Shown here: positions 4,026-44,975 of the stretch, in pieces
Numbering within the stretch: the first letter of the stretch is position 1
Layout: each line of letters begins with the position of its first letter
NCBI GenBank assembly: GCA_902515745.1
Contig: CABXWB010000005.1
Location: 21,303 to 85,302, forward strand
From: an uncultured Alphaproteobacteria bacterium
GTDB taxonomy: Bacteria; Pseudomonadota; Alphaproteobacteria; HIMB59; GCA-002718135
Reading direction: 5' to 3'
DNA: 64,000 bases
Notes under the pieces: generated by a model
Databases searched by the model: none
Told to the model about the DNA's origin: nothing
Seen by the model: only the letters and a program-made list of their open reading frames with translations
Made by a program: the position numbers and the translations under genes

Positions 4026-4791
4026 TAAAAAAAAAGGTTTAGTATTTGGTATTGCAAATAATCATTCAATTGCATGGGGAATAGCAAAACAACTAGCTAA
4101 AAATGGTGCTGAAATAGCCATTGGTTATCAAAATGAAATATTATTGAAGAGAGTGAAACCGCTTTCTGAAGAAATTAATTCAAAAATATTAATAGAATGT
4201 GATTTTAATAATGATGACTCAATAAACAAATCTGTAGAAATTATAAAAAAAGAATGGGGCACAATTGATTTTATAATTCATGCTGTTGCATTTGCAGATA
4301 AGTCAGAGTTAAATGGCAGATATGTTGATACTACGAAGGATAATTTTATTAATTGTTTGGAAATATCATGTTTTTCTTTAACTAGTCTTGCAAGAAATTT
4401 TGAACCTATAATGAATGATGGAGGAAGTATTCTCACCCTTACTTTTTACGGGTCAAATAAAGTAATACCAAATTACAATTTAATGGGAATTGCAAAAGCC
4501 GCTTTAGAAACAAGTGTAAAATACTTAAGTGTGGATTTAGGCACAAAAAATATTCGTGTTAATGCAATCTCAGCAGGACCTATGAGAACAGTTGCTGGTG
4601 CAGCAATAAATAATGCTAGGGAGGTGTTTAAATTTACAGAAGAACATTCAGCATTGAAACGAAATGCAAAACTAGATGAAATTGGTAAATCTGCTTTATA
4701 CTTTGTTAGTGATTTATCTTCTGCAGTTACTGGTGAAGTGCATTATGTTGACTGTGGTTACAATATTATCGGAATGCCCAATAAGTTCTAA
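4018..4791 (+). CDS. fabI: Enoyl-ACP reductase (NADH) FabI
   Basis: 257 aa. It carries [22 protein letters not shown] and ISAGP motifs of SDR-type FabI. It overlaps fabB by 8 nt. Confidence 0.93.
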
Positions 4792-5543
4792 AATTTTCCC
4801 AATAAATCTAAAGGATTATCAACAAAAATACTATCAACACCTATGGAGAAAATATCATTAGCACTAGATAAATTTATATTTTTATTCGAATAAACAGTTA
4901 TTGCCATATTGGATTCTTTAATTTTTTTTATAATATCAGCAGTAACAAGATCTATATTTAATCCACAAATTTTTAAATCATGATTAATTGAAATACTAAT
5001 CAAATCATCAATATTATATTTTTTAAAATCATCTAATAAAAAACTGCGTATAGATTGAGGGTAAAGTTTTGAAATTTCCAAAATAGAAATCATATCAAAT
5101 GAGGAGAAAAAAATATCTACTTGATTAATATTTTTTATAATTTTATATATTTGATAAACATTTTCTTTTTCAAAATTTTTATTGGGTTTTAATTCGATAT
5201 TTAAATTACCATTATAATTAGTACACAAACTAAGAATATCTTCTAACTTTGGAACAAAAATATTTGTATTTTCTTTATAAAAAAATTTTCCCGCATCAAG
5301 TCTTTTTATGTTCTCATAATCATAATCAATAGCAAGCCCACTTCCATTAGTAGTTCTATCAAGTGTGTCATCATGTAATAAAATTGGAACTCTGTCTTTA
5401 GAAATCTTAACATCTATTTCTACAAAACTTAAACCTAAATCGAATGCCTTTAAGATAGATTCTAAAGTGTTTTCTGGACACAGATCTTTTACACCTCTGT
5501 GCCCAATTAATTTAGGTAATTTAAGCGTTTTCTTCTGCGTCAA
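4788..5543 (-). CDS. ugpQ: Cytoplasmic glycerophosphodiester phosphodiesterase (GDPD family, UgpQ-like)
   Basis: 251 aa. GHRG...PENT and EIDV motifs are present and there is no signal peptide. Its stop codon overlaps the fabI stop, a 4-nt convergent overlap. Confidence 0.85.
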
Positions 5544-29541: not shown

Positions 29542-30594
29542 ATGGAAATTACAATTCTAATTTTTTTATTTGGTGGTCTTTTTTTAGGTTGGTCACTTGG
29601 TGCCAATGATGCAGCAAATGTTTTTGGGACTGCTGTTGGGACGCGAATGGTTGGTTTCACAACTGCAGCAATAATTTGTAGTGTCTTTGTTATTCTAGGT
29701 GCAATTATTAGCGGAGCAGGTACAACAGAAACTTTAGGAAAGTTAGGTGCTATTAATGCATTGCCTGGTGCTTTTGCAGCATGTGTGGCTGCGGGAATAT
29801 CTGTTTATTTAATGACCAAAGTTGGCTTGCCTGTTTCAACAACGCAAGCGATTGTTGGAGCAATTGTTGGTTGGAATTTATACACGGGATCTTCAACTAA
29901 TCTTCAAGTTTTAATTACTATTTTAGGAACATGGATACTCTGTCCTATTATTGCAGGAGTTATTGCAATGGGTTTATTTACTTTTACAAAAAAAGTTATA
30001 CTCAATAGAAAGTTACATATTCTCAGACTTGATGCCTATACAAGAACAGCTTTACTTTTAGCAGGTGCTTTTGGTGCTTATAGTTTAGGTGCAAACAATA
30101 TTGCTAATGTAATGGGTGTCTTCGTACCTATATCACCGTTTACTGATGTTACTATTGGAAATTTATTTGTCTTTTCCTCAAAAGAACAATTATTTCTTCT
30201 AGGTGGTTTAGCAATAGCTGTTGGTGTTTTTACTTACTCGAAAAGAGTTATGTTTACCGTTGGTAATGATCTCTTAAAAATGACACCAGTAGCAGCATTT
30301 ATTGTTGTTATATCACATTCTATTGTTTTATTTTTATTTGCATCCCAGGGTATAAGTGCTTTTTTACAATCTATAAATCTTCCCTCTATACCTTTGGTAC
30401 CAGTATCAAGTTCCCAAGCTGTTGTCGGCGGCGTAATTGGAATTGGTCTTTTAAAAGGAGGAAAAGAGGTTCAATGGTCAATTGCGGGTAGAATTTCTTT
30501 GGGTTGGATGACGCTACCTATAATTGCAGCTTTAATTTCTTTAATTGTTTTATTTATTCTAGAAAATATTTTTAATTTAACGGTCTCTTTTTAA
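29542..30594 (+). CDS. pit: Inorganic phosphate transporter, PiT family
   Basis: 350 aa. It has duplicated PHO4 signatures GANDAANVFGTAVG and GANNIANVMG, plus PVSTTQAIVGAIVG. Confidence 0.92.
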   Translation: MEITILIFLFGGLFLGWSLGANDAANVFGTAVGTRMVGFTTAAIICSVFVILGAIISGAGTTETLGKLGAINALPGAFAACVAAGISVYLMTKVGLPVSTTQAIVGAIVGWNLYTGSSTNLQVLITILGTWILCPIIAGVIAMGLFTFTKKVILNRKLHILRLDAYTRTALLLAGAFGAYSLGANNIANVMGVFVPISPFTDVTIGNLFVFSSKEQLFLLGGLAIAVGVFTYSKRVMFTVGNDLLKMTPVAAFIVVISHSIVLFLFASQGISAFLQSINLPSIPLVPVSSSQAVVGGVIGIGLLKGGKEVQWSIAGRISLGWMTLPIIAALISLIVLFILENIFNLTVSF

Positions 30595-31115
30595 TTAACT
30601 GCTCGATAAGAAAAAATAAAATCTTCCTGGATTTTTGACTCAATAGCTCCTTTTCTTCTTGATCGTACTAGATCAATAGCTTCTTGTTTTTCATAATTAA
30701 ATTCAACAAGTAAAATAGCAGCTATAGTGCCAGCTCTTCCTTTGCCTCCACGGCAATGTAAAACTATATTTTTACCATCTATCAATTCGTTCTTTAATAA
30801 AACTTTTGTTGTTTCCCATTTATATTTAAAATCTTTATCTGGTGCTCCCATGTCATAAATGGGTAAATGGTACCAATGTAATTTATGTTCATAAATATTT
30901 TTGACAAACAAAGTTTTATCACACAATTTTTCAAATTCGCTATCTTCAACAAAAGAAGTAATAGAACTACAATTATTATTTTTAAATATTTCTAATTCGT
31001 TTGCTAAAATTGTTTCTTCAAATAAACCATTAGAGTTAAGGCCTGGAAAAGAAGTTAATATAATTTTGCCTGCAAATGACTTAGAGTCAATAAAATCATA
31101 ATTGCTAAATTGCAT
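30591..31115 (-). CDS. Cys-X5-Arg phosphatase (dual-specificity/PTP-like fold)
   Basis: 174 aa. It carries the P-loop VLHCRGGKGRAGT. Confidence 0.8.
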   Translation of the reverse strand: MQFSNYDFIDSKSFAGKIILTSFPGLNSNGLFEETILANELEIFKNNNCSSITSFVEDSEFEKLCDKTLFVKNIYEHKLHWYHLPIYDMGAPDKDFKYKWETTKVLLKNELIDGKNIVLHCRGGKGRAGTIAAILLVEFNYEKQEAIDLVRSRRKGAIESKIQEDFIFSYRAVN

Positions 31116-31691
31116 TTACGCTTGTTTAGCTAAAAAAGACTGTCTTGCTTCTTCTAAATAGGAACGGAAATGTTCAACATCGGGAGTTTTTTTATCTAGA
31201 ACTTTTGCTAAATCATCAAATCTTCTAAGCTCTACTGCTTCATCCATAAAAGGTTTGCTTATGAACGCATCTGCTTCTTCTTTTGTGAAAGGACCACCTT
31301 GAACTTTTAACGAAAGTTTCGATGCTTCTGATAGACTATCATAATAACCTTCTTCAACACTTGATAAATATCTTTTTGAGTCAACATGTGCTCTAATTGG
31401 TAGAATAACATCCTCACCAAAATATTTTTTTAAAAAATCAGCACCTAAATTTTCATGATGACCATCTTTCCCTTCATGAATGGGATCACCGTCCTCATAG
31501 ATAAGGTGGCCAACATCATGCAGTAATGCTGCAGCAATTGTTGGTCCTGGTAATTTATGTTTTTCAGCAAGTTCAGCACATTGGAGTGCGTGCTCAAGTT
31601 GGGTCACATCCTCATTACCATATTGAATATCAGCACCTTTTGTTTTCAAAAGATCTAAGAGATAATCTACAATATTTTCTTCCATTCTCAT
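31116..31691 (-). CDS. phnZ: HD-domain mixed-valent di-iron oxygenase, PhnZ-like (C-P bond-cleaving 1-hydroxy-2-aminoethylphosphonate dioxygenase family)
   Basis: 191 aa. Motifs QLEHALQCA, AALLHDVGH, HHENLGADFL, RAHVDSKRYL, LSEASKLSLKVQGGPF and RRFDD align with PhnZ as I recall it. The Tyr24/Glu27 pair (DIQYGNED) is present. Confidence 0.75.
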   Translation of the reverse strand: MRMEENIVDYLLDLLKTKGADIQYGNEDVTQLEHALQCAELAEKHKLPGPTIAAALLHDVGHLIYEDGDPIHEGKDGHHENLGADFLKKYFGEDVILPIRAHVDSKRYLSSVEEGYYDSLSEASKLSLKVQGGPFTKEEADAFISKPFMDEAVELRRFDDLAKVLDKKTPDVEHFRSYLEEARQSFLAKQA

Positions 31692-31779: not shown

Positions 31780-32877
31780 ATGGATAAAAAATTATTAACC
31801 CCTGGGCCTCTCACGACATCGATGTCAACAAAAGAAGCTATGCTTCATGATTGGGGTTCGAGAGATACAAAATTTATTGATCTCAATGCATCAATTAGAG
31901 ATTCTCTTGTTAAATTAATAGATGGTGAAGATAAATATCAATGTGTTCCAATGCAGGGAAGTGGAACTTTTGCTGTAGAGTCGATGGTGAGCTCTCTTAC
32001 TCAAAAAGATTCTAAAATTCTGATTCTGATCAATGGTGCTTACGGACAAAGAATGAAAAAAATGTGCACATATTTAGGGAGAGATTTTATTGAATATGAA
32101 GTTGCTGAACATGAAGTACATGACATCAATAAAATTGAAGAGTTAATTGATAGCAACAACTTAACGCACGTCTTTACTGTATATTGTGAAACAACATCGG
32201 GTATTTTAAATCCTATTGAAGACATTGCAAAATTGGTTGAAGGGAAAAATTTATCGTTATTCATCGATGCAATGAGTGCCTTTGGTGCATTACCCTTAAG
32301 TTCTAAAACAATTACTTTTGATGCTGTTGCCGCTTCATCAAACAAATGCTTAGAAGGTGTGCCAGGTGTTGGTTTCATTCTTGTTAAAAATGAAGTTATT
32401 CAAAATGCAAAAGGCAATAGTCACTCACTAAGTCTAGACTTATATGATCAATGGCAAGCAATGGAAAAAAATAAACAATGGCGATTTACACCTCCTACAC
32501 ACGTATTGGCTGCATTCAATCAAGCGATTGAGGAACATAAACAACAAGGTGGGGTAGAGGGAAGAGGTAAAAGATATAAAAAAAATTGTGAAATTATTTG
32601 TAATGGAATGAAAGAGTTGGGATTTGAACAACTACTTCCTGATAATTTGCAAGCACCAATTATTATTACTTTTAAACAACCTAATGATCCTAAATTTAAC
32701 TTTGAGAAATTTTATAATGCTCTTAGTGAAAAAGATTTTTTAATTTATCCAGGAAAACTAACAGTAGCAGAAACTTTTAGAATTGGGTGTATTGGTAATT
32801 TAGATGAACAAGACATGATGGATACAATAAAAGCTGTAAAAGAAGTCGTTACTGAATTGGGATTAACATTAAACTAA
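31780..32877 (+). CDS. phnW: 2-aminoethylphosphonate:pyruvate aminotransferase PhnW
   Basis: 365 aa. It has the N-terminus LLTPGPLTTSMSTKEAMLHDWGSRD and a class V aminotransferase fold. Confidence 0.9.
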   Translation: MDKKLLTPGPLTTSMSTKEAMLHDWGSRDTKFIDLNASIRDSLVKLIDGEDKYQCVPMQGSGTFAVESMVSSLTQKDSKILILINGAYGQRMKKMCTYLGRDFIEYEVAEHEVHDINKIEELIDSNNLTHVFTVYCETTSGILNPIEDIAKLVEGKNLSLFIDAMSAFGALPLSSKTITFDAVAASSNKCLEGVPGVGFILVKNEVIQNAKGNSHSLSLDLYDQWQAMEKNKQWRFTPPTHVLAAFNQAIEEHKQQGGVEGRGKRYKKNCEIICNGMKELGFEQLLPDNLQAPIIITFKQPNDPKFNFEKFYNALSEKDFLIYPGKLTVAETFRIGCIGNLDEQDMMDTIKAVKEVVTELGLTLN

Positions 32878-32884
32878 CAAAATA

Positions 32885-33517
32885 ATGACAAAAGAAATTG
32901 AAATACCATTAGTTAAAGCAACAAATGAAAATCTTAAAGGATACGGATATTTAATCGATAGTTTTGAAAATAGTGATATTGAAATTGTTACTTGGCCAAA
33001 ACAAGGATGGCGCGAAATAGAAGAGGGAACTGGTAATGAAGGTGGAACTACCGAAGGTTCTTTTGATACATGGTGGCAAGGTGACGTGCTTTTTGGACAA
33101 AATAATGCTGTGCAACATAAAAGTGATTATGAAGTAGATGGAAAATATATACTGGGTTATGCCAATAATCCTGATCAAGAATTACAAAAAGATAAATATT
33201 CAGATCCAACAAAAATATTTCTATGGCATGCAAATTATCATCCTGATGGAGGTCAGCTTTTCTTTCCTGAAGAAAATAAACCATTTATTTGTCCTTTAGC
33301 CTTACCAACAGACGACATTGAACCAGAACATTTTAAAGCATTTTATTGTGATGGATCAAAAGGTTTGTATATTCATCCAAACATTTGGCATGAAGGGGTG
33401 TTTCCAGTTACAGAAAAACAATCGTTTCAAGGAAAACAAGGTAAAGTACATGCAAGAGTTAGCATCGACTTAAAAGAGGAATTTAATAAATATATTTATT
33501 TTAAAACTGCGATCTAA
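32885..33517 (+). CDS. Ureidoglycolate-lyase (AllA)-fold protein of unknown function
   Basis: 210 aa. It has an N-terminal PLVKATNENLKGYGYLI and a C-terminal HPDGGQLFFP...FKAFYCDGSKGLYIHPNIWHEG that parallel AllA (HPLGTQAFIP...GVNYHRNVWHHP). Its start lies 7 nt after the phnW stop. Confidence 0.6.
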   Translation: MTKEIEIPLVKATNENLKGYGYLIDSFENSDIEIVTWPKQGWREIEEGTGNEGGTTEGSFDTWWQGDVLFGQNNAVQHKSDYEVDGKYILGYANNPDQELQKDKYSDPTKIFLWHANYHPDGGQLFFPEENKPFICPLALPTDDIEPEHFKAFYCDGSKGLYIHPNIWHEGVFPVTEKQSFQGKQGKVHARVSIDLKEEFNKYIYFKTAI

Positions 33518-33537: not shown

Positions 33538-34326
33538 ATGAAAATTATTCACCTTTCAGACCCCCATATTTATATAGATAAGATTCATGGCATAGATCCT
33601 GTCAGTAAATTTAAAAAAGCATTAAGTCATATAAAAAATAATCATGGTGATGCGGATTTATTTGCCATCACTGGTGATATTACAGACTTAGGTGATAAAG
33701 ATTCTTATCAGTTATTTATAAAAATAATTGATGAAGCAAATCTGCCAAAGAATTTAAATCCTCAATTAATTATAGGTAATCATGATAACAGAGACGAGTT
33801 TAAAATAAACTTTCCTAATATTGAAACCGATCCAAATGGATTTATTCAATACTTTAAGGATATAGATAATAAACGTTTAATTTTTATAGATACTAATCTG
33901 ATTAACACTCACCAAGGACATTACTGTAAAGAGAGGCAAGAATGGTTAAATAATATTTTAAGTAAGACTAATACGGATACGTACATCTTTATGCATCATA
34001 ATCCACTAGCATTAGTAAAAGAGGAAAGTGATGGAATAGGATTACAACAAAAAAAAGAGTTTCAACAAATTTTAACTAAAAATAATAAGATAATAAAACA
34101 TATTTTTTTTGGTCATCAACACATTACAAGTTCTGGTTCTTATTGTGGTATTACTTTTTCCTCCCCAAGAAGTACTTGGTCTCCTCTAATACCTAACTTT
34201 TCAAATGAATATCGTTTAGGAACGGCTAATACAGATACAAATTATAATGTTGCAATAATTCGATCAGACGCCTTAATTATTCATACAGAGGATTTTTTAA
34301 AAACAGAAGTTAATTGGTTTAAATAA
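33538..34326 (+). CDS. Calcineurin-type metallophosphoesterase (class III phosphodiesterase, CpdA/GpdQ-like)
   Basis: 262 aa. It carries the motifs HLSDPH, GDITDLG, GNHDN, MHH and GHQH. Confidence 0.8.
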   Translation: MKIIHLSDPHIYIDKIHGIDPVSKFKKALSHIKNNHGDADLFAITGDITDLGDKDSYQLFIKIIDEANLPKNLNPQLIIGNHDNRDEFKINFPNIETDPNGFIQYFKDIDNKRLIFIDTNLINTHQGHYCKERQEWLNNILSKTNTDTYIFMHHNPLALVKEESDGIGLQQKKEFQQILTKNNKIIKHIFFGHQHITSSGSYCGITFSSPRSTWSPLIPNFSNEYRLGTANTDTNYNVAIIRSDALIIHTEDFLKTEVNWFK

Positions 34327-34330
34327 AAAA

Positions 34331-35437
34331 TTATTTTTTTTCGATTACAAATATTTCATTGTTAAAATAAAGACCTTTATTTTTAGCAACAATGTTTTGA
34401 ACAATTTTTTCATAGTTTTTAGTTTTTTCTACTTTCATTACTTTTTCGTCATCCATTTGATTGACATATATGGAGGCATTCCAAGCAGAAAAAACTAATG
34501 ATGTCGCTATACCTCCGCTGATTTCTGTTGGTAGAGCTCTCAATTTACATTTAATAATTCTTTTTTCTCCAAAAGATAAACTTCTTAATAAATCTTTATC
34601 TAAATTTTTCTTAAGATAAGAAATGATACTATTCCCAAGAGAAGGAAATGGGTCCTCTTTTGGCCAAATTTTACGAATTATTTCATTAGCAGGATCTTTT
34701 CCTGAAGCATGAATAGTTAATAATTTCCCTTTTGATTTTAACGCTCTAATCATTGGTTCGATGACATATTTTGATTTCTTTTCTGCTGAAATTCTTGACC
34801 GATACGGCTGTGAAGCAATAATAAGATCAAATTTATTATCTGATTTTTTTTTGGTAGGTATTAATTCATTTACGTTAAATTCTTGATCTTCGCGGTAGAT
34901 AACCATGACTGAAGGCTCTTTATAAGTATGGTTACCTGACTTTTTATTAATTTCTATATTCCATTTTTTTTCTAAAAATTCATTTTGTTTTCTTAATTGT
35001 TGGGCAAATTCAAGAGAGGTATCTCCTTTTAATTTAATAATATTCCAATTAATTTTTTTCTGTTTAACTTCATTTTTTGATTTTAGGTTTGCGGCTTCAG
35101 CGTAGTGTAGATTTGAAATGACAAAAACCGTATTCTTATGTTCAACAAACCTGTCGGGTAATTTTTCTAAACCTAATCTTACATCTTCTATGCTTATTTC
35201 TTTTGTGCAAACTAATAGAGGTACGTTAGGCTTAGCCTCGTGGCACTGACGCATAACATTCATAAGTAAGGAGCCATCACCCATACCAGCATCAAATATT
35301 TTTATGCCAGGTTTTTGAGGTTTAATTTTATTTACGTGAGGGCGTATCGCATCAGCAATTTGATTTTTTTCATTTGTTGTTGTGACAAATAATAAGTATT
35401 TTTGTCTATTATCATAAAACCTGAAATTTTTTTTCAT
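34331..35437 (-). CDS. Hypothetical protein with a class I SAM-methyltransferase-like motif
   Basis: 368 aa. It has IKIFDAGMGDGS (motif I-like) and DLIIASQPY (motif IV-like) separated by a Lys-rich insert. I recognise no confident family. Confidence 0.4.
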   Translation of the reverse strand: MKKNFRFYDNRQKYLLFVTTTNEKNQIADAIRPHVNKIKPQKPGIKIFDAGMGDGSLLMNVMRQCHEAKPNVPLLVCTKEISIEDVRLGLEKLPDRFVEHKNTVFVISNLHYAEAANLKSKNEVKQKKINWNIIKLKGDTSLEFAQQLRKQNEFLEKKWNIEINKKSGNHTYKEPSVMVIYREDQEFNVNELIPTKKKSDNKFDLIIASQPYRSRISAEKKSKYVIEPMIRALKSKGKLLTIHASGKDPANEIIRKIWPKEDPFPSLGNSIISYLKKNLDKDLLRSLSFGEKRIIKCKLRALPTEISGGIATSLVFSAWNASIYVNQMDDEKVMKVEKTKNYEKIVQNIVAKNKGLYFNNEIFVIEKK

Positions 35438-35439
35438 TA

Positions 35440-36552
35440 CTAATAAAGTCCCATTGATTTAGCAGAAGAGATGAATGCTTCTTTATTGCCAATAAAGTTT
35501 TTACCTCGTTCCCCTAAAAACGCATCATCTACTATATTATTCCATTCTTGAACAGGAACTTTTATTTCATTTAAGTTAAGAGGAACCTCTAAAGAACGCA
35601 TAAATTCACTCAAATGATTTGCGGCATTCTCTAGGTTATCGTTAAAAATTAACTTTAGTCTTTCTTCAGCTACACTATCAATTCCAACCATACTTTTAGT
35701 AATCATGGGTAAAGTAAATGAACAAGCAATACCATGCTGAATACCGTAATTGAGTGTCACAGGGTATGATAGATTGTGCGCAATAGCAGTTTTCGTATTG
35801 GAAAACGCTAAGCCAGCATGAACGCACGCCAATGCAATGTTTGAGCGTAATACAACATTTCTTAAATCTTTAGTGAGAAGTGGTAAATTTTCTAATACTA
35901 ATTTTGATGCTTGTATTGCATGAGAAGCAGAAATTGGGTTCGCATTAATATTCCAAATACTTTCCATCGAATGGGAGAGAGCATCTAAACCAGTTGAAAT
36001 GGTCAAGCCTAAAGGCTTATCAACCATAATAGATGGATCAATAATTGCTTTTTCTGCATAAAGAGATTTGTGCGCCAAAGATAATTTATTGTTTTTTTCT
36101 TTATCCCAAATTGTGGCCCAACACGTAAGCTCACTTGATGTTCCTGAAGTTGTAGGTATTGCAATAATCTTGATTGGATTTTCGACTCTTGGACTTTTCT
36201 TATTACGAACAAAATCTGTTAGATATTCTTGTTTATCTTTAAATGCAGCAATTGCTTTAGCTGTGTCTGTAACAGAACCACCACCTATAGCTAAAATATA
36301 ATCTACCGATTCATTGATTGAAGAAAATTTATTTTGTAGCTCTAAAATATCCTTATAGTCTGGATTAGGCTGAACATCCGTCATAATGGATAGTGGTGGA
36401 TTTGAAGAAGATTTTAATTCATCGCTATATTTTTTAAATATTTCTTCTGGATGTGTGATTATGATGTAGTTCTTATTTTTAAGAGCATCATGTACTTCTT
36501 TAAATCTATTTTCTCCAAAAATAATTTCAACAGGGTTAAAATAATTCCACAT
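35440..36552 (-). CDS. Iron-containing alcohol dehydrogenase (group III ADH; size and context compatible with the phosphonoacetaldehyde reductase/HEP dehydrogenase subfamily)
   Basis: 370 aa. It has AIGGGSVTDTAK, GLDALSH and a HxxxH region (AIAHNLSYP...QHGIA). Confidence 0.8.
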   Translation of the reverse strand: MWNYFNPVEIIFGENRFKEVHDALKNKNYIIITHPEEIFKKYSDELKSSSNPPLSIMTDVQPNPDYKDILELQNKFSSINESVDYILAIGGGSVTDTAKAIAAFKDKQEYLTDFVRNKKSPRVENPIKIIAIPTTSGTSSELTCWATIWDKEKNNKLSLAHKSLYAEKAIIDPSIMVDKPLGLTISTGLDALSHSMESIWNINANPISASHAIQASKLVLENLPLLTKDLRNVVLRSNIALACVHAGLAFSNTKTAIAHNLSYPVTLNYGIQHGIACSFTLPMITKSMVGIDSVAEERLKLIFNDNLENAANHLSEFMRSLEVPLNLNEIKVPVQEWNNIVDDAFLGERGKNFIGNKEAFISSAKSMGLY

Positions 36553-36556
36553 TACA

Positions 36557-37636
36557 TTAAATTGATTTTGCCGCTTTAGTTAAAATTGTCATTTTCTCAA
36601 TTGCTTGTTCTCGCGTAAAGAAACCTAAACCACAATCTGGTGCAGCTATTAAACGGTCTTCATCAATATGTTCAAGTGAATCTTTGATACGGACTCTTAC
36701 TTCTTCAACAGACTCCATTCTACTTTTTGCAATATCAATAAATCCAAAAATTACTTTTGTTTTTGTAAATTTTTCTAAAAGATTTAAGTCATTATGTCTG
36801 TGGGAATCTTCCAAAGATACTTCATCAATAGTTGAATCATCTACAAGTGATGCAATTCTATCATAAGCATCTAGATCAGCTTTTTTATAACCTTCTGAAT
36901 CTAGTGAGTTGGGATAACCACAACAAATATGACATACACGTTGAACTTCTTTAGGAATACCATGCATCATTCTTTCTAAATTTTCCATACCATATGAATG
37001 AGCTTCATCGGGCTTTCTAGCAAATACTGGTTCATCAATTTGAATATACTGACAGCCTGCATCTACAAGTGCTTTAACTTCTTTATTAAGTGCTAATGCT
37101 AAATCAAAACCAAGTTTTTTCATGTCATCATAGTAGTTGTTCGCAATTGAATCTGTTATTGTCATTGGTCCAGGTAGGGTAATTTTAACTGGATTTTTTG
37201 TAAATTGTTGTGCGCTCTTCCAGTCTAGATGCATACGTATTTCTTTACTTGAAATCGGTGCAACAATAGTTGGAAGATCAGCTTCGAACGCACCTTGTCG
37301 TACTGACTTATGTGTAACTTCTTTAAAACTTACTCCATTTAAAAATCGACATTGATATAAGACATAACTCTCACGTCTCACTTCTCCATCTGTTGGAACA
37401 TCAATTCCCGCATTTACCTGATCAATAATAACTTCTTTAATTGCTTCTAAAAATAATTTTTCAGCATCCGCACCCGCAGACTCTAACGCTTTTTCATATG
37501 CACCAGGTGACCAATTCGATAATAATCCTTTTGACGCTTTTCTCTCTTCTTCTGATTTTGTCCCTAAAAACCAATCTTGAATCGGCGTCTGTTTTGGTTT
37601 TGGATATGCACCTATGGTAGTAGTTGTAAGAGGCAT
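36557..37636 (-). CDS. MetE C-terminal-domain-only protein (cobalamin-independent methionine synthase / alkyl-thiol transferase superfamily)
   Basis: 359 aa. It has IQIDEPVF, RVCHICCGYP (a His-x-Cys zinc motif) and APDCGLGF (the distal zinc Cys). An SD sequence GGGAGA lies upstream. Confidence 0.8.
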   Translation of the reverse strand: MPLTTTTIGAYPKPKQTPIQDWFLGTKSEEERKASKGLLSNWSPGAYEKALESAGADAEKLFLEAIKEVIIDQVNAGIDVPTDGEVRRESYVLYQCRFLNGVSFKEVTHKSVRQGAFEADLPTIVAPISSKEIRMHLDWKSAQQFTKNPVKITLPGPMTITDSIANNYYDDMKKLGFDLALALNKEVKALVDAGCQYIQIDEPVFARKPDEAHSYGMENLERMMHGIPKEVQRVCHICCGYPNSLDSEGYKKADLDAYDRIASLVDDSTIDEVSLEDSHRHNDLNLLEKFTKTKVIFGFIDIAKSRMESVEEVRVRIKDSLEHIDEDRLIAAPDCGLGFFTREQAIEKMTILTKAAKSI

Positions 37637-37660
37637 GACTTATTCTCCCAAATATCTTAA

Positions 37661-37690
37661 AATAAAACAGCGGCTTTTATAAAGCCGCTG
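37661..37690 (-). terminator. Strong intrinsic terminator/attenuator after the binding-protein gene
   Basis: The minus strand reads CAGCGGCTTT-ATA-AAAGCCGCTG (10-bp stem) followed by TTTTATTTT. It lies 28 nt after the SBP stop and about 25 nt before the metE-like ATG. Confidence 0.8.
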
Positions 37691-37718
37691 TAGTAAAAAG
37701 TTAACAATAAAGTAATCT

Positions 37719-38972
37719 CTATAAAAGATCCTCTATTTCTTCCATCATCTCTTCTTGAAGATCAGCCATATTATCTGCACTGCCTGTAGCAATTTCTTCA
37801 GTGTAATCATATATTACCTGAGTTATTGCTAGACCGTTTTCACCAGGATATGCAAACCAATCAGCCAATAAAGGTAATTGATTTACAGCAGTTAGCTTGT
37901 TTGGATTTTTAGTATAAAAATCACCTAACAAATCATTGGCTGCTTTATTTGGTGGAACATATCCAGTAGTTTCAGCAACTAAAGCTGCACCTATACCAGA
38001 AGTGATAAACTTTAAGAAAGTCCATGCAGCATCTACTCTTGCTGGATCATCAGATGTAGAAACCAACATCGCAGCATTTCCACCCGCTGGAAGTCTTGCT
38101 GGAGTTCCTCCATTTACACCTGGCATTCCTGGAAATGGTGCTGTTTTAAGTTCAAAATCTGCTTTGGCTGCGTTCACTGAACCTAAGCTTGATGTTGACC
38201 AGAAAAACATACCAATAGTGCCTGCATTAAATGCAGCTTGACCGTCAGCAATTGAATAGTTTGGCATATTACAACCACTCATTATGTCATGCATTTGTTG
38301 TAAAGTTGCTAAACCAGCGTCTCCACCCATATTAACAGCACCATCTTTTACCATTGGAACATTTTGGGTATGCATTAATGCTTGGTGAAACCAGTTACCT
38401 GTAATATTCCAACCAAAATATAAAGTTCCTTTTCCAGCTGCTTCTAATTTATTACAAGCTGCGATAACTTCATCCCAGTTAGTTGGGATGCTATCTATAC
38501 CTGCTTCAGCTAATAGATCCATGTTATAGTATCCAACTGGTGTTGATACAGAAAAAGGCAACCCATATACGTCACCACCAAAGGTAGATAGACTTAACAT
38601 AGCAGAGTGATAACCATCTTTTTCAAAGTCAGCTTCTCCTGCAATAAAAGGCTCTAATGATTTTGCAATCCCTTTATCAACAAGTGGTGCTTGTCTGTTA
38701 AGACCTTGCATTGTTACATCTGGTAAATTACCTGAAGTAGACTCCCTGAAGATTGTTGCGGTTGCATCCTCATAGTTTTCATAAGTTGCTCTAAATTTAA
38801 CTTGAATATCTGGATGTGCTTTTTCAAACTCTGGCATAATAGCTTGAAACGTAACATCGAATAATCCTGAATAAGGATAAGCTACTTCTATTTCAATAGA
38901 CTTAGCTGAATTAACAGAACCATAAAAACCAAAAGCTAATACGGCTGCCAATCCTGTAATTAATTTTTTCAT
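37719..38972 (-). CDS. ABC transporter periplasmic substrate-binding protein, family 1 (UgpB/sugar-type fold); candidate organophosphonate/organophosphate binder
   Basis: 417 aa with a signal peptide (MKKLITGLAAVLAFGFYGSVNSA). It is flanked by phnY/phnA and by cognate UgpAEC-like genes. Confidence 0.8.
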   Translation of the reverse strand: MKKLITGLAAVLAFGFYGSVNSAKSIEIEVAYPYSGLFDVTFQAIMPEFEKAHPDIQVKFRATYENYEDATATIFRESTSGNLPDVTMQGLNRQAPLVDKGIAKSLEPFIAGEADFEKDGYHSAMLSLSTFGGDVYGLPFSVSTPVGYYNMDLLAEAGIDSIPTNWDEVIAACNKLEAAGKGTLYFGWNITGNWFHQALMHTQNVPMVKDGAVNMGGDAGLATLQQMHDIMSGCNMPNYSIADGQAAFNAGTIGMFFWSTSSLGSVNAAKADFELKTAPFPGMPGVNGGTPARLPAGGNAAMLVSTSDDPARVDAAWTFLKFITSGIGAALVAETTGYVPPNKAANDLLGDFYTKNPNKLTAVNQLPLLADWFAYPGENGLAITQVIYDYTEEIATGSADNMADLQEEMMEEIEDLL

Positions 38973-39024
38973 TTAATCCTCCCGATTGAATATAATAGTT
39001 TAATCTATCATGTAGCCCTAGAGG

Positions 39025-39042
39025 GTTACAATTTTATTACGA
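39025..39042 (-). promoter_or_regulatory. Candidate Pho-box-like direct repeat TCGTAAT-aaaa-TTGTAAC
   Basis: Read on the minus strand, it lies about 50 nt upstream of the SBP start. It has the same 7+4+7 geometry and the same TTGTAAC heptamer as 28816-28822. Confidence 0.3.
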
Positions 39043-39109
39043 AAATATAACTAAAAAATATGCTTATTTTTCCACAGCATTAATGAAAATTAGAGAAAAA
39101 CTGATTTAT

Positions 39110-40552
39110 TTACCAAGGTAGCGAAAAGGTTTTTACATTAGTAAAACTTTTCATTGCTTCAATAACACCCTCTTTGTAACCAAGACCTGAATCTTTTATT
39201 CCTCCAAAAGGAGACATTTCAATTCTATAGCCTGGAACCTCCCAAATATTTACCGTACCAACATTTAAACCTTGAATATATTTTTTTGCTCGCATGAAGT
39301 TATTTGTACATACACCAGATGATAATCCGAATGCAGTTGAATTAGATATTTTCATTACAGCTTCATCGTCATTAGGCACACGAATGATTGGGATAACTGG
39401 ACCAAATGTTTCTTCTAAAACCAATTCACTTTTAGGATCAACATTATCTACAACTATTGGAGGTAACAAAGCACCCTTTCTTCCAGGATGATATAAAATT
39501 TTTGCACCGTCTTCTTCAGCCATAGAAACTCTTTTATCAAAAAGTTCTGCAGCTTGAGCATTAACAACAGTACCTAAGTCTGTTTCCATATTCATAGGAT
39601 CGCCAAATTTAATTTTCTTAGCACGCTCTAGAGCCATTTCAACAAATTGATCTGCGATAGATTCTTGTACTAATATTCTTTTAACAGCTGTACAACGTTG
39701 ACCAGAGTTTTTCGTTGCTCCAGTAACAGCTAGCTCAACAGCTTTTTTAAGATCATCACCATCTAAGTCATTTAAAACAATTAATGGATCATTACCACCA
39801 AGCTCAAGAACTGTTCTTTTATATCCAGCTTGTTCAGCAATTAATTTTCCTACACCTACACTGCCTGTAAAAGTAATTAGATCAATATTTGGATTCTTGA
39901 TCATTTCTGATCCGATATCTTGAGGCCAGCCTGTAACAACTGAAAACATTTCTGGTGGTAAACCAGCTTCATATAAAACATCAGCAAGAACCATTGCGGT
40001 TAAGGGAGTTAACTCTGTCTGCTTACAAACAGTACAATTGTTTGTTGCAATTGAAGGCGCAATTTTATGCGCTACCATATTCAAAGGATGATTAAATGGA
40101 GTGATTGCTGAAATAGCTGTTAATGGTTCTCTTATAGTAAATATTTTTCTGGCTTTTCCATGTGGAGTTAAATCACAAGAAAATATTTCTCCATCATCTA
40201 GAATACAAAGTTGAGCCGTTAATGAAAATACATCGAAAGCTCTTCCTACTTCGTATAAAGAATCTTGTTTTGAGATTCCAAGTTCTAAAGTAATAATATC
40301 AGAAATTTCTTCTTTTCTTTTAACAAGTACTTCTGCAGCAGTTTGAAGAATTTTTTGTCTCTCATATCTTGTAAGTTTAGGTTGGTAATTTGCAGCAATA
40401 TCTAGAGCCTTTCTTGCATGCTCAGCAGTACCGGCAGGGACCGTGCCGATTACTTCACCTGTAAAAGGGTACTCAACATTTATTGTTTTGTCTGAAGTAA
40501 CTTTTTCTCCAGCAATACGCATTGCTTCATTAATCATTTTTTTGTGCATCAT
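39110..40552 (-). CDS. phnY: Aldehyde dehydrogenase, probable phosphonoacetaldehyde dehydrogenase PhnY
   Basis: 480 aa. It has ALDH motifs (ELGGNDP, catalytic Cys in GQRCTAV). It overlaps phnA by 4 nt, the arrangement of the PhnW-PhnY-PhnA pathway. Confidence 0.75.
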
Positions 40553-41790
40553 AGGGCTCCATTTATTGCATAATAAAATGCATCATAGTTATATAATTGT
40601 TTGCTAGTATCTATGTTTTGTAATTTTAAATTAGATATGAATGGCACTTCTCTTTCATGAAGTCCACCGTGTGAACGCAAAGGTTCATTTAATCCAGAAA
40701 GATTGTGTTTATCTTTCGATGAACCAATGGTCATAAATTCTGAAGACATACATATTATGTCTCCCATTCTATCAGGGGGTAAGTTATAAGTAGAGCATCC
40801 TTCGTCTTTTGTTAAAACAACTTCTATATCTTTTATTTCTTTGATAGCATTTACAACTGAATCTACCTTACTTTTGTCTTCTAAATAAATTGTTGCAAAA
40901 GAACCAAGTGAACCATGATGCACGACATATGGATCTGTAATTGGTAGAATAACTTTAGCCATGTTTGGTTCAAATTTATTATCTAAATAATCTTGTAAAA
41001 ATATTGCATTAGGTGAACCGTCTTCTTTTGATTTTGGTTTCATACCGTGATCTGCTGTAATGATTATAGAAACATTCTCCTTATTTAAAAGACCAATATA
41101 TTTATCAAACATTGCATAAAATTTATTTGCTGTTTCATTTCCTGGTGCATATTTGTGTTGAATATAATCCGTAGTCGATAAATACATGATATTTGGTTTG
41201 AACTCTTCAAGAAGCTTTACACCTGCGGCCATTACAAATTCAGAAAGTCCTTCAGAGTATACTTCTGGCACTGGCATTCCCAACCAATCGTTTACATTAT
41301 CTATACCATTGAGATCTTTTGTTGCTTGATCAGATTTTTCAGCAGAAAAACAAATAGCTCTCTCATCATTAAAACTTAATCCGTTTCCTAAAAGTGTTCT
41401 CAGCTTATCTTTTGCAGTAACAAGAGCAATTTTAGAACCAGAATTGTAAAATTTTTCAAAAATAGTTGGTGCTCGCATATATTTTGGGTCATTCATCATT
41501 ACTTCTTCACCAGTCTCAGGTGTATAAAAGAAGTTTCCGCATATACCGTGAACAGAACTTGGCTGCCCAGTTACAATGGAAATATTATTAGGATTTGTAA
41601 AACTTGGAATAGCGCTGTGGACAAGTAGGTTTTCACCGTTTGCAATTAATTTATCAAGATTTGGTGTAAGATCTGATTTTGATGCTTCGTCGAGATACTC
41701 TTTTTGACTACCATCAAGGCATATAACAATAGCAGTTTTTGAGAAAGAGGTTGGATATTCTCTTTTATTAATTTCTAAATTATCGGACAC
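40549..41790 (-). CDS. phnA: Phosphonoacetate hydrolase PhnA (alkaline-phosphatase superfamily)
   Basis: 413 aa. The sequence [14 protein letters not shown]...[28 protein letters not shown] matches the PhnA signature as I recall it. Confidence 0.8.
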
Positions 41791-41970: not shown

Positions 41971-43110
41971 GTGGGCACAATATCACTTAAAAATATTTCA
42001 AAGTCATTTGGGTCTACGCAAGTATTAAACAATTTAAATGTTGATATACAAGAGGGTGAATTTTTAACATTAGTTGGTCCATCTGGTTGTGGTAAATCCA
42101 CCTTACTCCGAATCATTGCAGGATTAGAACAACAAACTTCAGGCGATGTATTAATTGATAATAAGAATGTAAATAAAATTAGAGCCAGCGAGCGAGATCT
42201 TGCAATGGTATTTCAATCATACGCTTTATATCCACATTTAACTGTAAGAAAAAATTTAGAAACACCTCTAAGACTGAGAGATTATAATGCTTTTGAACGC
42301 CTTCCTTTAATAGGGAATTTTTCTCCAAACAAAAAAAATAAAACTGAGTCTATCAATCAATTAGTTAATAAAACATCTGAAACACTTCAGATTTCTGAAC
42401 TACTGGATAGAAAACCAGGACAATTATCAGGGGGCCAAAGACAAAGAGTAGCTCTTGGTCGCGCAATGGTAAGAGAACCTGTTGCATTCTTAATGGATGA
42501 ACCACTGTCAAATTTAGATGCCGCTCTAAGAGTGCATATGCGATCTGAATTATCGGAACTTCACAATTCACTTAAAACAACATTTGTTTATGTAACGCAT
42601 GATCAAGCAGAAGCATTAACAATGTCTTCTCGTATGGCGGTAATGATTGATGGCAATCTATTACAACTTGATACACCACAAGAAGTATATGATAATCCTT
42701 CATCATTAAGTGTTGCACAATTTGTTGGCAGTCCTAAAATAAATATTTTTAATGGATCTTCAGATTCTAGTGGAACTGTTAATTTTTTAAATGTTAACCT
42801 AAAAAGAAAAAGTTCTGAAAGTAATTCAGATTTACACATAGGAATTCGACCAGAACATTTAGAAATTACTAATAATAAAGATGAAAACACATTTAGTGGC
42901 ACTGTTGCTTACAGAGAAAATTTAGGATCAGATATATACTTCCATGTTAATATAGAAGACAACTCAAAAAAAATAATTGTAAGAGGCTTACCTCAATTTA
43001 CACATCAAATTACAAATGGTTCAAGTGTAAATATCAAGAGAGATTCAAATAAAGCATTGTTATTTAATCAAACAGGGATGAGGATTCATTTTAATAATGC
43101 AATGGGATAA
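41971..43110 (+). CDS. ABC transporter ATP-binding protein, MalK/UgpC type (GTG start)
   Basis: 379 aa. It has Walker A GPSGCGKST, the LSGGQRQRVALGRA signature, Walker B FLMDEPLSNLD and a C-terminal regulatory domain. The SD sequence is GGGGAGGAG. Confidence 0.9.
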   Translation: MGTISLKNISKSFGSTQVLNNLNVDIQEGEFLTLVGPSGCGKSTLLRIIAGLEQQTSGDVLIDNKNVNKIRASERDLAMVFQSYALYPHLTVRKNLETPLRLRDYNAFERLPLIGNFSPNKKNKTESINQLVNKTSETLQISELLDRKPGQLSGGQRQRVALGRAMVREPVAFLMDEPLSNLDAALRVHMRSELSELHNSLKTTFVYVTHDQAEALTMSSRMAVMIDGNLLQLDTPQEVYDNPSSLSVAQFVGSPKINIFNGSSDSSGTVNFLNVNLKRKSSESNSDLHIGIRPEHLEITNNKDENTFSGTVAYRENLGSDIYFHVNIEDNSKKIIVRGLPQFTHQITNGSSVNIKRDSNKALLFNQTGMRIHFNNAMG

Positions 43111-43125
43111 GGATAATATTTACTA

Positions 43126-44082
43126 ATGCATAATTCAAAGGCTCATCTATGGTTTATTGCCCCTGCAATAATACTCATGATAATTATTTTAATCTTTCCT
43201 CTTTTTCTTGCAGGTGGGATTTCCTTTACTGACTATAATTTAGGCAACAAAACATTTGAATGGATTGGGTTAGAGAACTATGACAAAATGTTTAACCGAA
43301 AAACTTATGTGAAGATGATTTGGGCAACAGCAACGTATGTAATTGTTGTGGTGCCTATTTCAGTTATACTTGGTTTATGTGCAGCAATGCTCTTAAATTC
43401 TCTACGATTTGGTGCTGACATATATAAAACTATTTTCTTTCTTCCAGTTATGGCGACGCTTCTGGCAATGGCTATTGCGTGGGAATTCACTCTTCACCCA
43501 ACTCTTGGAATAGTAAATAGTTTTTTAGCTAATGGTTGTGGTGGAGCAAGAGAATTTATTTTTGGTTTTCATTGGTTACCATGGGTAAACTCAGAACAAA
43601 GCTGGTATGCAGTGGCATGTGCTAATAACATGGACTTTCCTTATTGGTTAAAACAAAAAAATACTGCAATTTGGACTGTGTGTTTTATTGGAATATGGCA
43701 AGCCTTTGGTTTCAATATGGTTTTATATTTAGCCGGATTAACAGGTATACCAAGAGAACTATATCAAGCTGCCGAAATGGATGGAGCTAAATCAACATGG
43801 GAACAATTTAAACTTGTGACATGGCCAATGCTTGGTCCAACAACTTTATTTGTTGTAACCATAACGACTATTAGAACCTTTCAAGTTTTTGATACAATTG
43901 AAATACTCACAAAAGGTGGTCCATCTAAAACAACCTATGTTATGATGTATGCAATTTTTGAAAAAGCTATTCAACAAAATTTAACAAGTATTGGTGCAGC
44001 TATCACAGTTGTCTTCATTGGCTTTATATTGATATTAACTTTCTTCCAAAGATATATCATTGAGAAAAGGGTTCATTATTAA
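43126..44082 (+). CDS. ABC transporter permease (UgpA/MalF-like)
   Basis: 318 aa. It has the EAA loop ELYQAAEMDGAKSTWEQFKLVTWPML. Confidence 0.88.
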   Translation: MHNSKAHLWFIAPAIILMIIILIFPLFLAGGISFTDYNLGNKTFEWIGLENYDKMFNRKTYVKMIWATATYVIVVVPISVILGLCAAMLLNSLRFGADIYKTIFFLPVMATLLAMAIAWEFTLHPTLGIVNSFLANGCGGAREFIFGFHWLPWVNSEQSWYAVACANNMDFPYWLKQKNTAIWTVCFIGIWQAFGFNMVLYLAGLTGIPRELYQAAEMDGAKSTWEQFKLVTWPMLGPTTLFVVTITTIRTFQVFDTIEILTKGGPSKTTYVMMYAIFEKAIQQNLTSIGAAITVVFIGFILILTFFQRYIIEKRVHY

Positions 44083-44975
44083 TGGAAGCTAAACAGTATA
44101 TTGGGGAAGGTTGGAAACATGCAATATTGATTATTGGTGCAATTGTTGTGTTGTTGCCTTTTTATATGATGGTTTCAATGTCATTAAAATCTCAACAAGA
44201 AATTCAATCTATTTCTGGAGGCCTAATTGGTGCTCAAGAAACTCAGACATTTCCCGTATGTGTAAAAACTGGATACTCAGAAGAAGAATGCACAATGAAA
44301 CCATATAAATACAACTATTGGTTTGCTTTCGAAAAGGCTCCCATTCCAAGATACTTGATGAATGGTGTTATTGTAACTTTATCAATTTTTATCATTCAAG
44401 TTCTTGTCGCTTTACCGTGTGCCTACGCTCTGGCCAAACTTAGATTTTATGGACGAGAGTTTGTTTTCTCCATGGTGTTATTTTGTTTACTCATCCCAGT
44501 GCATGGAATTGCACTTCCACTTTACGTCATGCTTGCCCAGGCAGGTTTGGTCGATACCTATTCTGCCTTAATACTCCCCTGGACAATATCGGTGTTTGGA
44601 ATTTTTCTAATGCGGCAATTTTTTATGACAGTCCCAGATGAATTAATTGACGCCGCCAGGATGGATGGAATGGGAGAGTATGCTATAGTCTGGAAAGTAA
44701 TGCTTCCAACTGCGATACCAGCATTACTTGCCTTTGCTATTTTCTCAGTAGTTGCACACTGGAATGATTATTTCTGGCCTCGAATGGTAATTACTGGAAA
44801 TAGAGATCTCTTTACGCCACCTCTTGGTATCAGAGAATTTAGAGGTGGAATTGATAGTGATGAGTTTGGTCCAATGATGGCTTCAATTGTTACAGTAACA
44901 GTACCTCTCATTGTTGCTTTTATAATTGCGCAAAAAAGATTTATTGAAGGAATTACTTTAACAGGAATGAAGTAA
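44082..44975 (+). CDS. ABC transporter permease (UgpE/MalG-like)
   Basis: 297 aa. It has the EAA loop ELIDAARMDGMGEYAIVWKVMLP. Confidence 0.88.
   Translation: MEAKQYIGEGWKHAILIIGAIVVLLPFYMMVSMSLKSQQEIQSISGGLIGAQETQTFPVCVKTGYSEEECTMKPYKYNYWFAFEKAPIPRYLMNGVIVTLSIFIIQVLVALPCAYALAKLRFYGREFVFSMVLFCLLIPVHGIALPLYVMLAQAGLVDTYSALILPWTISVFGIFLMRQFFMTVPDELIDAARMDGMGEYAIVWKVMLPTAIPALLAFAIFSVVAHWNDYFWPRMVITGNRDLFTPPLGIREFRGGIDSDEFGPMMASIVTVTVPLIVAFIIAQKRFIEGITLTGMK

Follow-up and report, generated by a model that had tools for sequence, protein, structure and literature searches.

A MetE-like zinc enzyme, a PhpC-type dehydrogenase and a methyltransferase-fold protein are probably separate additions to the phosphonate-scavenging operon of SAR11 bacteria

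Phosphonates make up a large share of marine dissolved organic phosphorus, and SAR11 bacteria are among the most abundant bacteria in the ocean. In Ugp/GpdQ systems, a UgpB/UgpC-like ATP-binding cassette (ABC) importer is found beside a GpdQ-like metallophosphoesterase (MPE) in a phosphorus-scavenging context; to our knowledge, a MetE-like enzyme has no role in the known Ugp systems. MesD, a proven methionine synthase, is a single MetE C-terminal barrel without the folate domain and has an H-x-C/Glu/Cys zinc site. PhpC-type iron-containing alcohol dehydrogenases (Fe-ADHs), whose genes are clustered with phnX or phnY-phnA, oxidise 2-hydroxyethylphosphonate (HEP) to phosphonoacetaldehyde (Piazza et al. 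2026, PMC13576164). According to the same paper, the predicted metal ligands of PhpC are Asp191, His195, His260 and His274, the predicted HEP-binding residues are Lys157, Thr256, Tyr264 and Arg349, Tyr264 is replaced by Phe in sulfoacetaldehyde reductases, and phnW is uncommon in phpC clusters; SAR11 is absent from its main text. In this study, we analysed a stretch of 64,000 nucleotides (hereafter the window) from an uncultured alphaproteobacterium (assembly GCA_902515745.1, contig CABXWB010000005.1, positions 21,303 to 85,302), the proteins of which are 97-100% identical to proteins from SAR11 (Pelagibacteraceae) single-cell genomes. On its minus strand, the genes are arranged in the order phnA, phnY, the solute-binding protein (SBP) gene of an ABC importer, the MetE-like gene, the Fe-ADH gene and a third gene (Table 1). 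We call the 359-aa MetE-like protein MetEc and the 368-aa third protein X. The three distal genes are probably separately inherited add-ons to the SAR11 phosphonate-scavenging operon, not one module, and are probably co-transcribed.

This view is based on a survey of 80 SAR11 genome loci that have X, in 75 of which the interval from phnY to X is complete. Between phnY and X, SBP-MetEc-ADH is present in 60 of the 75 loci, ADH only in four and none of these genes in 11. X comes after phnA-phnY in every locus with a complete interval; X is an old, constant partner of phnA-phnY in SAR11. The ATPase and permease genes of the importer lie upstream of phnA in 57 of the 60 loci with SBP-MetEc-ADH, and SAR11 loci without MetEc are also without these importer genes. 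Remnants of lost genes were found in close relatives. In L060, X is 96.5% identical to that of the window and a 130-nt remnant of the 3' end of the ADH gene is retained (L060 6310-6457). In L061 and L045, the phnY stop codon is immediately followed by what remains of the MetEc 5' end, 47 nt and 27 nt, respectively. The gene content between phnY and the next gene is undergoing recurrent loss. The deeper SAR11 lineages possess phnY-X or phnY-ADH-X with short, clean spacers. The likely history is that phnA-phnY-X came first, followed by ADH and then by the importer and MetEc, and that secondary losses occurred afterwards.

The first-pass annotation had regarded the trio as one module, and its view can be put as a single dedicated pathway in which MetEc, ADH and X act on one novel phosphonate. 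The genes indeed share a strand, are separated by only 2-4 nt and lie behind a single hairpin, and the trio is intact in four-fifths of the complete SAR11 loci (60/75). However, 11 loci have X but neither of the other two genes and four have ADH-X but no MetEc, parts of the trio have been deleted, with scars left behind, in genomes that are nearly identical, and outside SAR11 MetEc is never found with X and X is never found with a window-type ADH. Thus, the single-pathway idea is very unlikely, and the distribution largely refutes it. Because the three genes have different distributions, because close relatives carry deletion scars and because the partners of MetEc are ABC importer genes, we conclude that the trio is not one module.

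Among the three proteins, the ADH is the one for which a function can be proposed with good support. It matches the Pfam families Fe-ADH and ADH_Fe_C. Its best family is TIGR03405 (E 1e-108, 363.2 bits), with a lead of more than 200 bits over other families, although the score is below the curated cut-off of 423.7. The predicted metal ligands D190, H194, H259 and H273 and the equivalents of the HEP-binding site, K156, T255, Y263 and R349, are present; these residues, and those of the PbfG-like enzymes described below, were mapped by a constant offset against section 2.8 of PMC13576164, not by alignment to the characterised proteins. In 64 of the 75 SAR11 loci, the ADH gene is on the same strand and in the same operon as phnA-phnY. 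It is therefore well supported that the window ADH is a PhpC-type HEP dehydrogenase, which would feed PhnY and PhnA. The window ADH resembles PhpC in the Fe-ADH fold, in the predicted metal and HEP ligands and in the clustering with phnY-phnA, and differs from it in the lower score and in that the cluster also contains phnW. The first-pass annotation had proposed the same reaction, and the TIGR03405 score and the PhpC signature residues support it. That annotation had left the gene unassigned; because the enzyme class is described in PMC13576164, this no longer applies. We also considered a choline dehydrogenase. This assignment is disfavoured, since the score with the GbsB model is 120 bits, lower than the 363 bits obtained with the PhpC model, and the protein has the phosphonate-clamp residues. 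With this ADH, the recently described catabolic route for HEP is extended to SAR11.

MetEc matches PF01717 (E 1.6e-35) and is under every methionine-synthase cut-off of NCBIfam; against PRK09121 it gives 195.5 bits (cut-off, 392). Among solved structures and characterised proteins, its nearest relative is MesD (3RPD, E 9e-45), and MetEc is 33-34% identical to 3RPD and to an Acinetobacter MesD. This is below the similarity to ACIAD3523 of at least 560 bits, about 72% identity, that marks MesD (Price et al. 2021, PMC7857596). The motifs IQIDEP (D201), HICCGY (H236 and C238), SLE (E276) and PDCGLG (C335) are present. We compared the zinc ligands to His641, Cys643, Glu665 and Cys726 (E. coli numbering) and the homocysteine-binding residues to Ser433, Glu484 and Asp599. 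Among 118 clade members, the four zinc ligands (H236, C238, E276 and C335) show at least 97% conservation, in agreement with the first-pass annotation, which had described the zinc/thiolate motifs as intact. E85 and D201, the Glu and Asp that bind the amino group of homocysteine, are likewise at least 97% conserved in these members. In contrast, the carboxylate-binding Ser is replaced by Ala in the window MetEc and in roughly three of every four clade members; the others keep Ser.

Thus, judged from its sequence, MetEc is a core MetE-like zinc enzyme of a clade separate from MesD. The two have in common the single barrel, the zinc site, the Glu and Asp for the homocysteine amino group and about 33% identity over the full length. 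Unlike MesD, MetEc has an N-terminal insertion of about 24 residues, the Ser-to-Ala replacement and R207, H279 and R280, which are conserved in the clade and different in MesD. Furthermore, MetEc is tied to an ABC importer and HEP dehydrogenases and has no MesX or flavin reductase partner: the genes examined near MetEc in the window, L002 and L170-L180 did not include DUF1852 (MesX). The true MesD in L181 lies between DUF1852 and a flavin reductase. In the plasmid collection, the only relatives of MetEc were of the MesD type, and there was no relative of X. The MetE-fusion of Phaeocystis (PMC10861871) was rejected as a counterpart of MetEc because the architecture differs. Our literature search found neither work after 2021 on the donors of MesX nor a MetE-like gene in phosphonate clusters.

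We next describe the surroundings of MetEc outside SAR11. MetEc adjoins orthologous ABC importer genes in five marine lineages (L170, L174, L176, L177 and L180). The importer orthologues are 61-64% (SBP), 61-71% (permeases) and 52-58% (ATPase) identical to those of the window. In L176 (MetEc, 54% identical) and L177 (60%), the order is ATPase-permease-permease-SBP-MetEc, preceded by PHO4 and LysR genes in the former and by Na/Pi-PhoU and LysR genes in the latter; phosphate (Pi) transporter genes, PHO4 in one case and a Na/Pi cotransporter with PhoU in the other, are thus found by the cassette. L180 (57%) has the same order of five genes, followed by a convergent zinc-containing alcohol dehydrogenase (Zn-ADH) gene and a sulfatase/Phosphodiest-family gene. 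In these three lineages, the gene that precedes MetEc is the SBP orthologue. In L174 (60%), the importer is divergent and a Zn-ADH gene comes before MetEc. In L170 (72%), a BCCT gene is divergent and the MPE, SBP, two permease and ATPase genes lie alongside. MetEc, the SBP, two permeases and the ATPase form a five-gene cassette. In addition, L172 (68%) has a TRAP transporter, and a PhpC-type ADH gene (421 bits) and a Phosphonate-bd SBP gene are about 5.5 kb away.

The Zn-ADHs of L174 and L180 share 74% identity. They give 295 bits (cut-off, 328) against TIGR03366, the family named 'phosphonate catabolism associated alcohol dehydrogenase', and keep the equivalents of C45, S47, R56, H66, H124 and C166, namely, the zinc ligands and most of the predicted HEP-binding residues of PbfG. 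Thus, the predicted HEP dehydrogenase beside MetEc belongs to the PhpC class in SAR11 and to PbfG, an unrelated class, in L174 and L180; this is the strongest functional clue. The pairings occur in differing gene arrangements. Because MetEc is linked to both unrelated classes, the idea that it transfers a methyl or alkyl group to a thiol gains support. The replacement of MetEc in the SAR11 lineage L001, in which an intact PF02574 homocysteine S-methyltransferase directly follows X and MetEc is absent, was also counted in favour of thiol methyl transfer. A phosph(on)oesterase gene adjoins in SAR11 and L170 (MPE in both, a distant Metallophos match in L170) and is one gene away in L180; the MPE is a candidate for the enzyme that hydrolyses a phosph(on)oester bond of the imported compound.

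Our best explanation, in which we have moderate confidence, is that the three genes are the distal part of an SBP-MetEc-ADH-X unit, that they are three add-ons and that dealkylation by MetEc leads into the HEP route. The importer would take up an esterified or alkylated organophosphonate. With a zinc-activated thiol, most likely homocysteine, MetEc would remove the methyl or alkyl group, a step that gene linkage suggests. A phosphoesterase, in the window the GpdQ-like MPE, would free the phosphonate, and the product would enter the HEP route. ADH would then convert HEP to phosphonoacetaldehyde, from which PhnY and PhnA would form acetate and phosphate. Speculatively, homocysteine derived from the reaction of X may be re-methylated by MetEc. 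There is also a form of this explanation, rather improbable in our judgement, in which the imported organophosphorus compound is itself the alkyl donor to homocysteine, so that one step would yield methionine and HEP and the latter would be mineralised to phosphate. If so, MetEc would be the first core synthase of the MesD-like kind for which an exogenous donor is defined, the reaction would be a new way for SAR11 and other marine bacteria to enter phosphonate catabolism, and X would be the founding member of a new family of methyltransferases with ties to methyl-cycle genes. The cassette shows conservation across marine Proteobacteria and has links to both unrelated HEP dehydrogenase classes. 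It points to a natural organophosphonate yet to be identified and suggests that zinc-thiolate chemistry of the MetE type is put to a new use, and it is a handle on the question of which compound donates the methyl group to MesD-like core methionine synthases. The class of the ADH was already known; MetEc and its importer, as a core MetE/MesD variant with a new set of partners, and X, as a family within a known fold, are new.

Several points weigh against the dealkylation route. The sample outside SAR11 comprised nine lineages only, in which MetEc is 54-72% identical to that of the window. None of phnX, phnA and phnY was found within 7-10 kb in L174, L176, L177 and L180. In Magnetovibrio-like and other genomes, MetEc orthologues of about 70% identity (71% in L002 and 70% in L178) stand alone, with no transporter or phosphonate genes near them. 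Both the ADH (363 bits) and the PbfG-like enzymes (295 bits) score under the curated cut-offs, and their substrate residues were assigned by offset. Because the carboxylate-binding Ser is mostly Ala in the clade, the thiol may be one other than homocysteine. Moreover, we know of no natural methylated or alkylated HEP derivative.

Another explanation is that MetEc is a sister of MesD that makes methionine independently of folate and B12 and receives the methyl group from a non-phosphonate onium donor taken up by the linked importer, for example choline or betaine derived from glycerophosphocholine, or a sulfonium compound. The phosphonate genes would then be neighbours in a phosphorus-stress island. 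The relationship to MesD in structure and characterised family, the conservation of the zinc ligands and of two of the three homocysteine-binding residues, and the stand-alone orthologues agree with this idea. Likewise, the SBP resembles UgpB and the MPE resembles GpdQ, and MetEc in L170 is divergent from a BCCT transporter gene and near genes for methylenetetrahydrofolate reductase (MTHFR) and a URO-D/B12-binding protein. The PF02574 enzyme of L001 is accompanied by a second UgpB-like importer and GDPD, a glycerophosphodiesterase; stand-alone relatives of PF02574 use onium donors. However, the PbfG-type Zn-ADHs that MetEc adjoins in L174 and L180 have predicted substrate residues that suit an anionic phosphonate, not choline, and the PhpC-type ADH of the window has the same kind of phosphonate-binding signature. 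Furthermore, no SAM riboswitch was found ahead of MetEc in the window or in seven loci, and the carboxylate-binding Ser is mostly replaced. An onium donor would leave the repeated pairing with phosphonate-type dehydrogenases unexplained, and we consider this explanation somewhat unlikely. The first-pass annotation had offered, as one of its hypotheses, a methionine-synthase-like system that merely sits in the island; this is disfavoured, although the stand-alone orthologues do exist.

It should be mentioned that the L170 cassette is flanked by genes for the BCCT transporter, for MTHFR with a DUF5981 gene and for the URO-D/B12-binding methyltransferase (L170 45-6680 and 13976-15080). The surroundings of this cassette are a neighbourhood of methyl-group metabolism. 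In L001 (8923-19248), the arrangement is phnA-phnY-ADH-X-PF02574, followed by the different UgpB-like importer and GDPD. A second importer and GDPD of the L001 type were also observed in L045, L048, L050 and L062.

A further idea is that MetEc acts like epoxyalkane:coenzyme M transferase (EaCoMT). The replacement of Ser by Ala permits a thiol other than homocysteine. MetE and EaCoMT belong to the same superfamily and use the same zinc-thiolate chemistry. The thiol would open an epoxide or displace a leaving group on a phosphonate, and the ADH would oxidise the resulting 2-hydroxy thioether; an ADH recurs beside MetEc. In contrast to this expectation, the amino-group-binding Glu and Asp of homocysteine users are conserved in MetEc, and no thioether-cleaving enzyme is conserved nearby. 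In L002, MetEc is followed by a succinate-semialdehyde dehydrogenase gene and then by a Pyr_redox gene, but the product of the latter is an ordinary glutathione reductase and looks housekeeping. An EaCoMT-like reaction is hardly probable.

X has no sequence match in Pfam, NCBIfam or the Protein Data Bank (PDB); Methyltransf_31 gives 19.4 bits (cut-off, 27). Its AlphaFold2 (AF2) model, with a mean confidence (pLDDT) of 91.3, has a class I methyltransferase fold with an inserted subdomain. In a Foldseek search, the best match was human histamine N-methyltransferase (1jqd, E 3e-11), followed by thiol methyltransferases and the phosphonate methyltransferase HvrF. There were 216 PDB structure matches at E <= 1e-3, and all among the 50 matches listed are methyltransferases. 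In motif I, FDAGMGDG, G51 and G53 are conserved in at least 90% of members, and K79 and E80 at the acidic site of strand 2 are nearly invariant. The model thus indicates that X is an S-adenosylmethionine (SAM)-dependent methyltransferase of an unnamed family within a known fold. The SAM-methyltransferase-like motifs seen by the first-pass annotation are real, but the Lys-rich region (about residues 112-200) that it took for an insert forms a subdomain that is folded with high confidence in the model, rather than a disordered insert. X resembles histamine N-methyltransferase in the Rossmann-like core, the GxGxG motif, the acidic end of strand 2 and the inserted substrate-binding subdomain. However, it is only 11-13% identical to this enzyme and to other small-molecule methyltransferases, and has a family-specific N-terminal motif, FRFxDNRQKYLxFVxTxxEK.

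The family of X comprises 775 cluster representatives at 50% identity, and the sampled members are all called 'hypothetical'. In soil alpha- and betaproteobacteria, X occurs in a long form, which has an additional N-terminal domain and a length of about 470 aa. In an 80-locus set, a divergent MTHFR-like gene follows long-form X in most of the soil metagenome loci that extend past the gene. In one soil sub-lineage, a protocatechuate 3,4-dioxygenase gene is upstream of long-form X, and LigM (vanillate O-demethylase, 731 bits) and two to four MetE-like paralogues of the PF01717 PRK06520 type are downstream. The pair of X and the MTHFR-like gene persists in soil loci without LigM, the dioxygenase and the PRK06520-type genes. 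Thus, X is found repeatedly beside methyl-cycle genes of three different families, and its family is widespread and unnamed, with two conserved but different genomic contexts. Members of this kind were observed in a Xanthobacteraceae-like soil cluster (L087 6450-15400; L091-L136).

As described in the first-pass annotation, the three minus-strand genes are tightly packed: the gap is 4 nt between MetEc and ADH and 2 nt between ADH and X. The strong hairpin with a U-tract that it placed after the SBP gene was also found. The hairpin (37691-37667, minus strand, 3' of the SBP stop codon) has an 11-bp G+C-rich stem with six G-C pairs and a 3-nt loop, and is directly followed by the T-run TTTATTTT at 37666-37659. 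The centroid energy is -16.9 kcal/mol and the z-score of the spacer is -2.8. These are features of an intrinsic terminator, a G+C-rich stem and then a U-run. All 62 SAR11 loci with SBP-MetEc have the same stem and T-run, including loci at about 88% protein identity with a divergent flanking spacer and Shine-Dalgarno (SD) sequence. Because the stem and the T-run are invariant while the rest of the spacer and the SD diverge, the hairpin is more than a chance structure. Hairpins after the SBP stop codon are also present in L176 and L177, the two non-SAR11 lineages whose spacers were inspected, and the order of SBP, hairpin and MetE-like gene is thus found again in distant lineages.

Partial terminators and stabilisers are common 3' of SBP genes. 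The hairpin is most likely a partial terminator or mRNA stabiliser, and it would set the level of the SBP high relative to that of the enzymes encoded downstream. The SD of MetEc, GGGAGA, is at 37649-37644 and its ATG is at 37636, so that 22 nt remain between the T-run and the start codon. A sigma-70 scan reported no minus-strand promoter in the SBP-MetEc spacer. Both results agree with the earlier statement that there is no room for a promoter behind the terminator. Upstream of the SBP gene, the phnY-SBP spacer contains TTGTAA (39031-39026, minus strand), a spacer of 18 nt and TG-n-TAGATT (-10 hexamer, 39007-39002). A CTGTGGAAAAA box is located at 39077-39067 (minus strand), about 35 nt upstream of the -35 hexamer of this promoter-like site. 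The hexamers and the box are conserved over 49 distinct SAR11 spacer sequences, whereas the bases between the hexamers vary. The box is nearly invariant, even in the most divergent spacers, with one single-base variant, and may be the site of a regulator. SBP-hairpin-MetEc-ADH-X is likely to be a transcription unit, and expression of the three genes by read-through from the SBP gene, as the first-pass annotation suggested, is plausible from the gene order in L176 and L177 and from the conserved promoter-like site. A palindrome in the phnY-SBP spacer (39011-39030) was rejected as an operator because it is not conserved in relatives. An Rfam search upstream of MetEc in the window and seven loci gave no SAM or B12 riboswitch, only sub-threshold chance matches, and Pho-box-like direct repeats were not enriched (three observed against 4.8 expected).

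The locus is a phosphorus-scavenging island, the G+C content of which is about 30-38% in an AT-rich window. The importer ATPase and permease genes are divergent from phnA. The closest solved structures to the SBP are sugar SBPs and UgpB (E 1e-18 to 1e-12), and its likeness to the UgpB model is distant (67 bits; cut-off, 411). The SBP was rejected as AepX, AepS or PhnS, since these belong to PF13343 and the window SBP to PF01547/PF13416. The MPE has GpdQ (2zo9/2dxl) as its closest solved structure. Thus, the window resembles Ugp/GpdQ systems in its importer, its MPE and its context, and is unlike them in the distant SBP and in the presence of a MetE-like enzyme. On the side of the MPE and phnW, the island also has the PhnZ/TmpB-like HD protein, a dual-specificity phosphatase and a PHO4 Pi transporter with a PhoU-like protein. 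The pair of phnW and the gene for a 210-aa partner is present in most of the surveyed SAR11 loci. The partner matched no NCBIfam family and is a second unassigned constant member of the SAR11 2-aminoethylphosphonate (AEP) cluster.

Table 1. Positions of the genes and sequence elements in the window and of the deletion scars in two related loci.
Feature	Position	Strand	Size or basis
MetEc (core MetE-like, putative zinc thiol alkyl/methyl-transferase)	36557-37636	-	359 aa
PhpC-type Fe-ADH (predicted)	35440-36552	-	370 aa
X (class I SAM-methyltransferase-fold protein)	34331-35437	-	368 aa
Intercistronic hairpin and T-run, SBP gene/MetEc	37659-37691	-	Fold and 62-locus comparison
Promoter-like site for the SBP-MetEc-ADH-X unit (putative)	39002-39077	-	Conservation in SAR11 spacers
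Importer SBP, UgpB/sugar-type	37719-38972	-	Pfam SBP_bac_1
phnY, phosphonoacetaldehyde dehydrogenase	39110-40552	-	TIGR03250, 797 bits (cut-off 635.7)
phnA, phosphonoacetate hydrolase	40549-41790	-	TIGR02335, 468 bits (cut-off 407.6)
ABC importer ATPase	41971-43110	+	Pfam ABC_tran/TOBE_2
Two importer permeases	43126-44082, 44082-44975	+	Pfam BPD_transp_1
GpdQ-like MPE, convergent with X	33538-34326	+	Metallophos match
210-aa phnW partner	32885-33517	+	Weak Ureidogly_lyase match (E 4e-10)
phnW	31780-32877	+	PRK13479, 511 bits
HD-domain protein, PhnZ/TmpB-like	30591-31691	-	TIGR03276, 201 bits (cut-off 214.6)
MetEc 5'-remnant scars	L061 8784-8877; L045 8818-8865

The HD-domain protein of the window has a likeness to PhnZ1 and TmpB, and the dual-specificity phosphatase-like gene follows it. 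Far from the island, at 4788-5543 (minus strand), there is a glycerophosphodiester-phosphodiesterase-like open reading frame, which is 41% identical over 117 aa to the GDPD of L001. In about 10 SAR11 loci (L006, L020, L032, L035 and others), an extra SBP gene and two extra permease genes are located between the MPE gene and the gene for the 210-aa protein. These are paralogues of the window importer genes and have no ATPase gene of their own.

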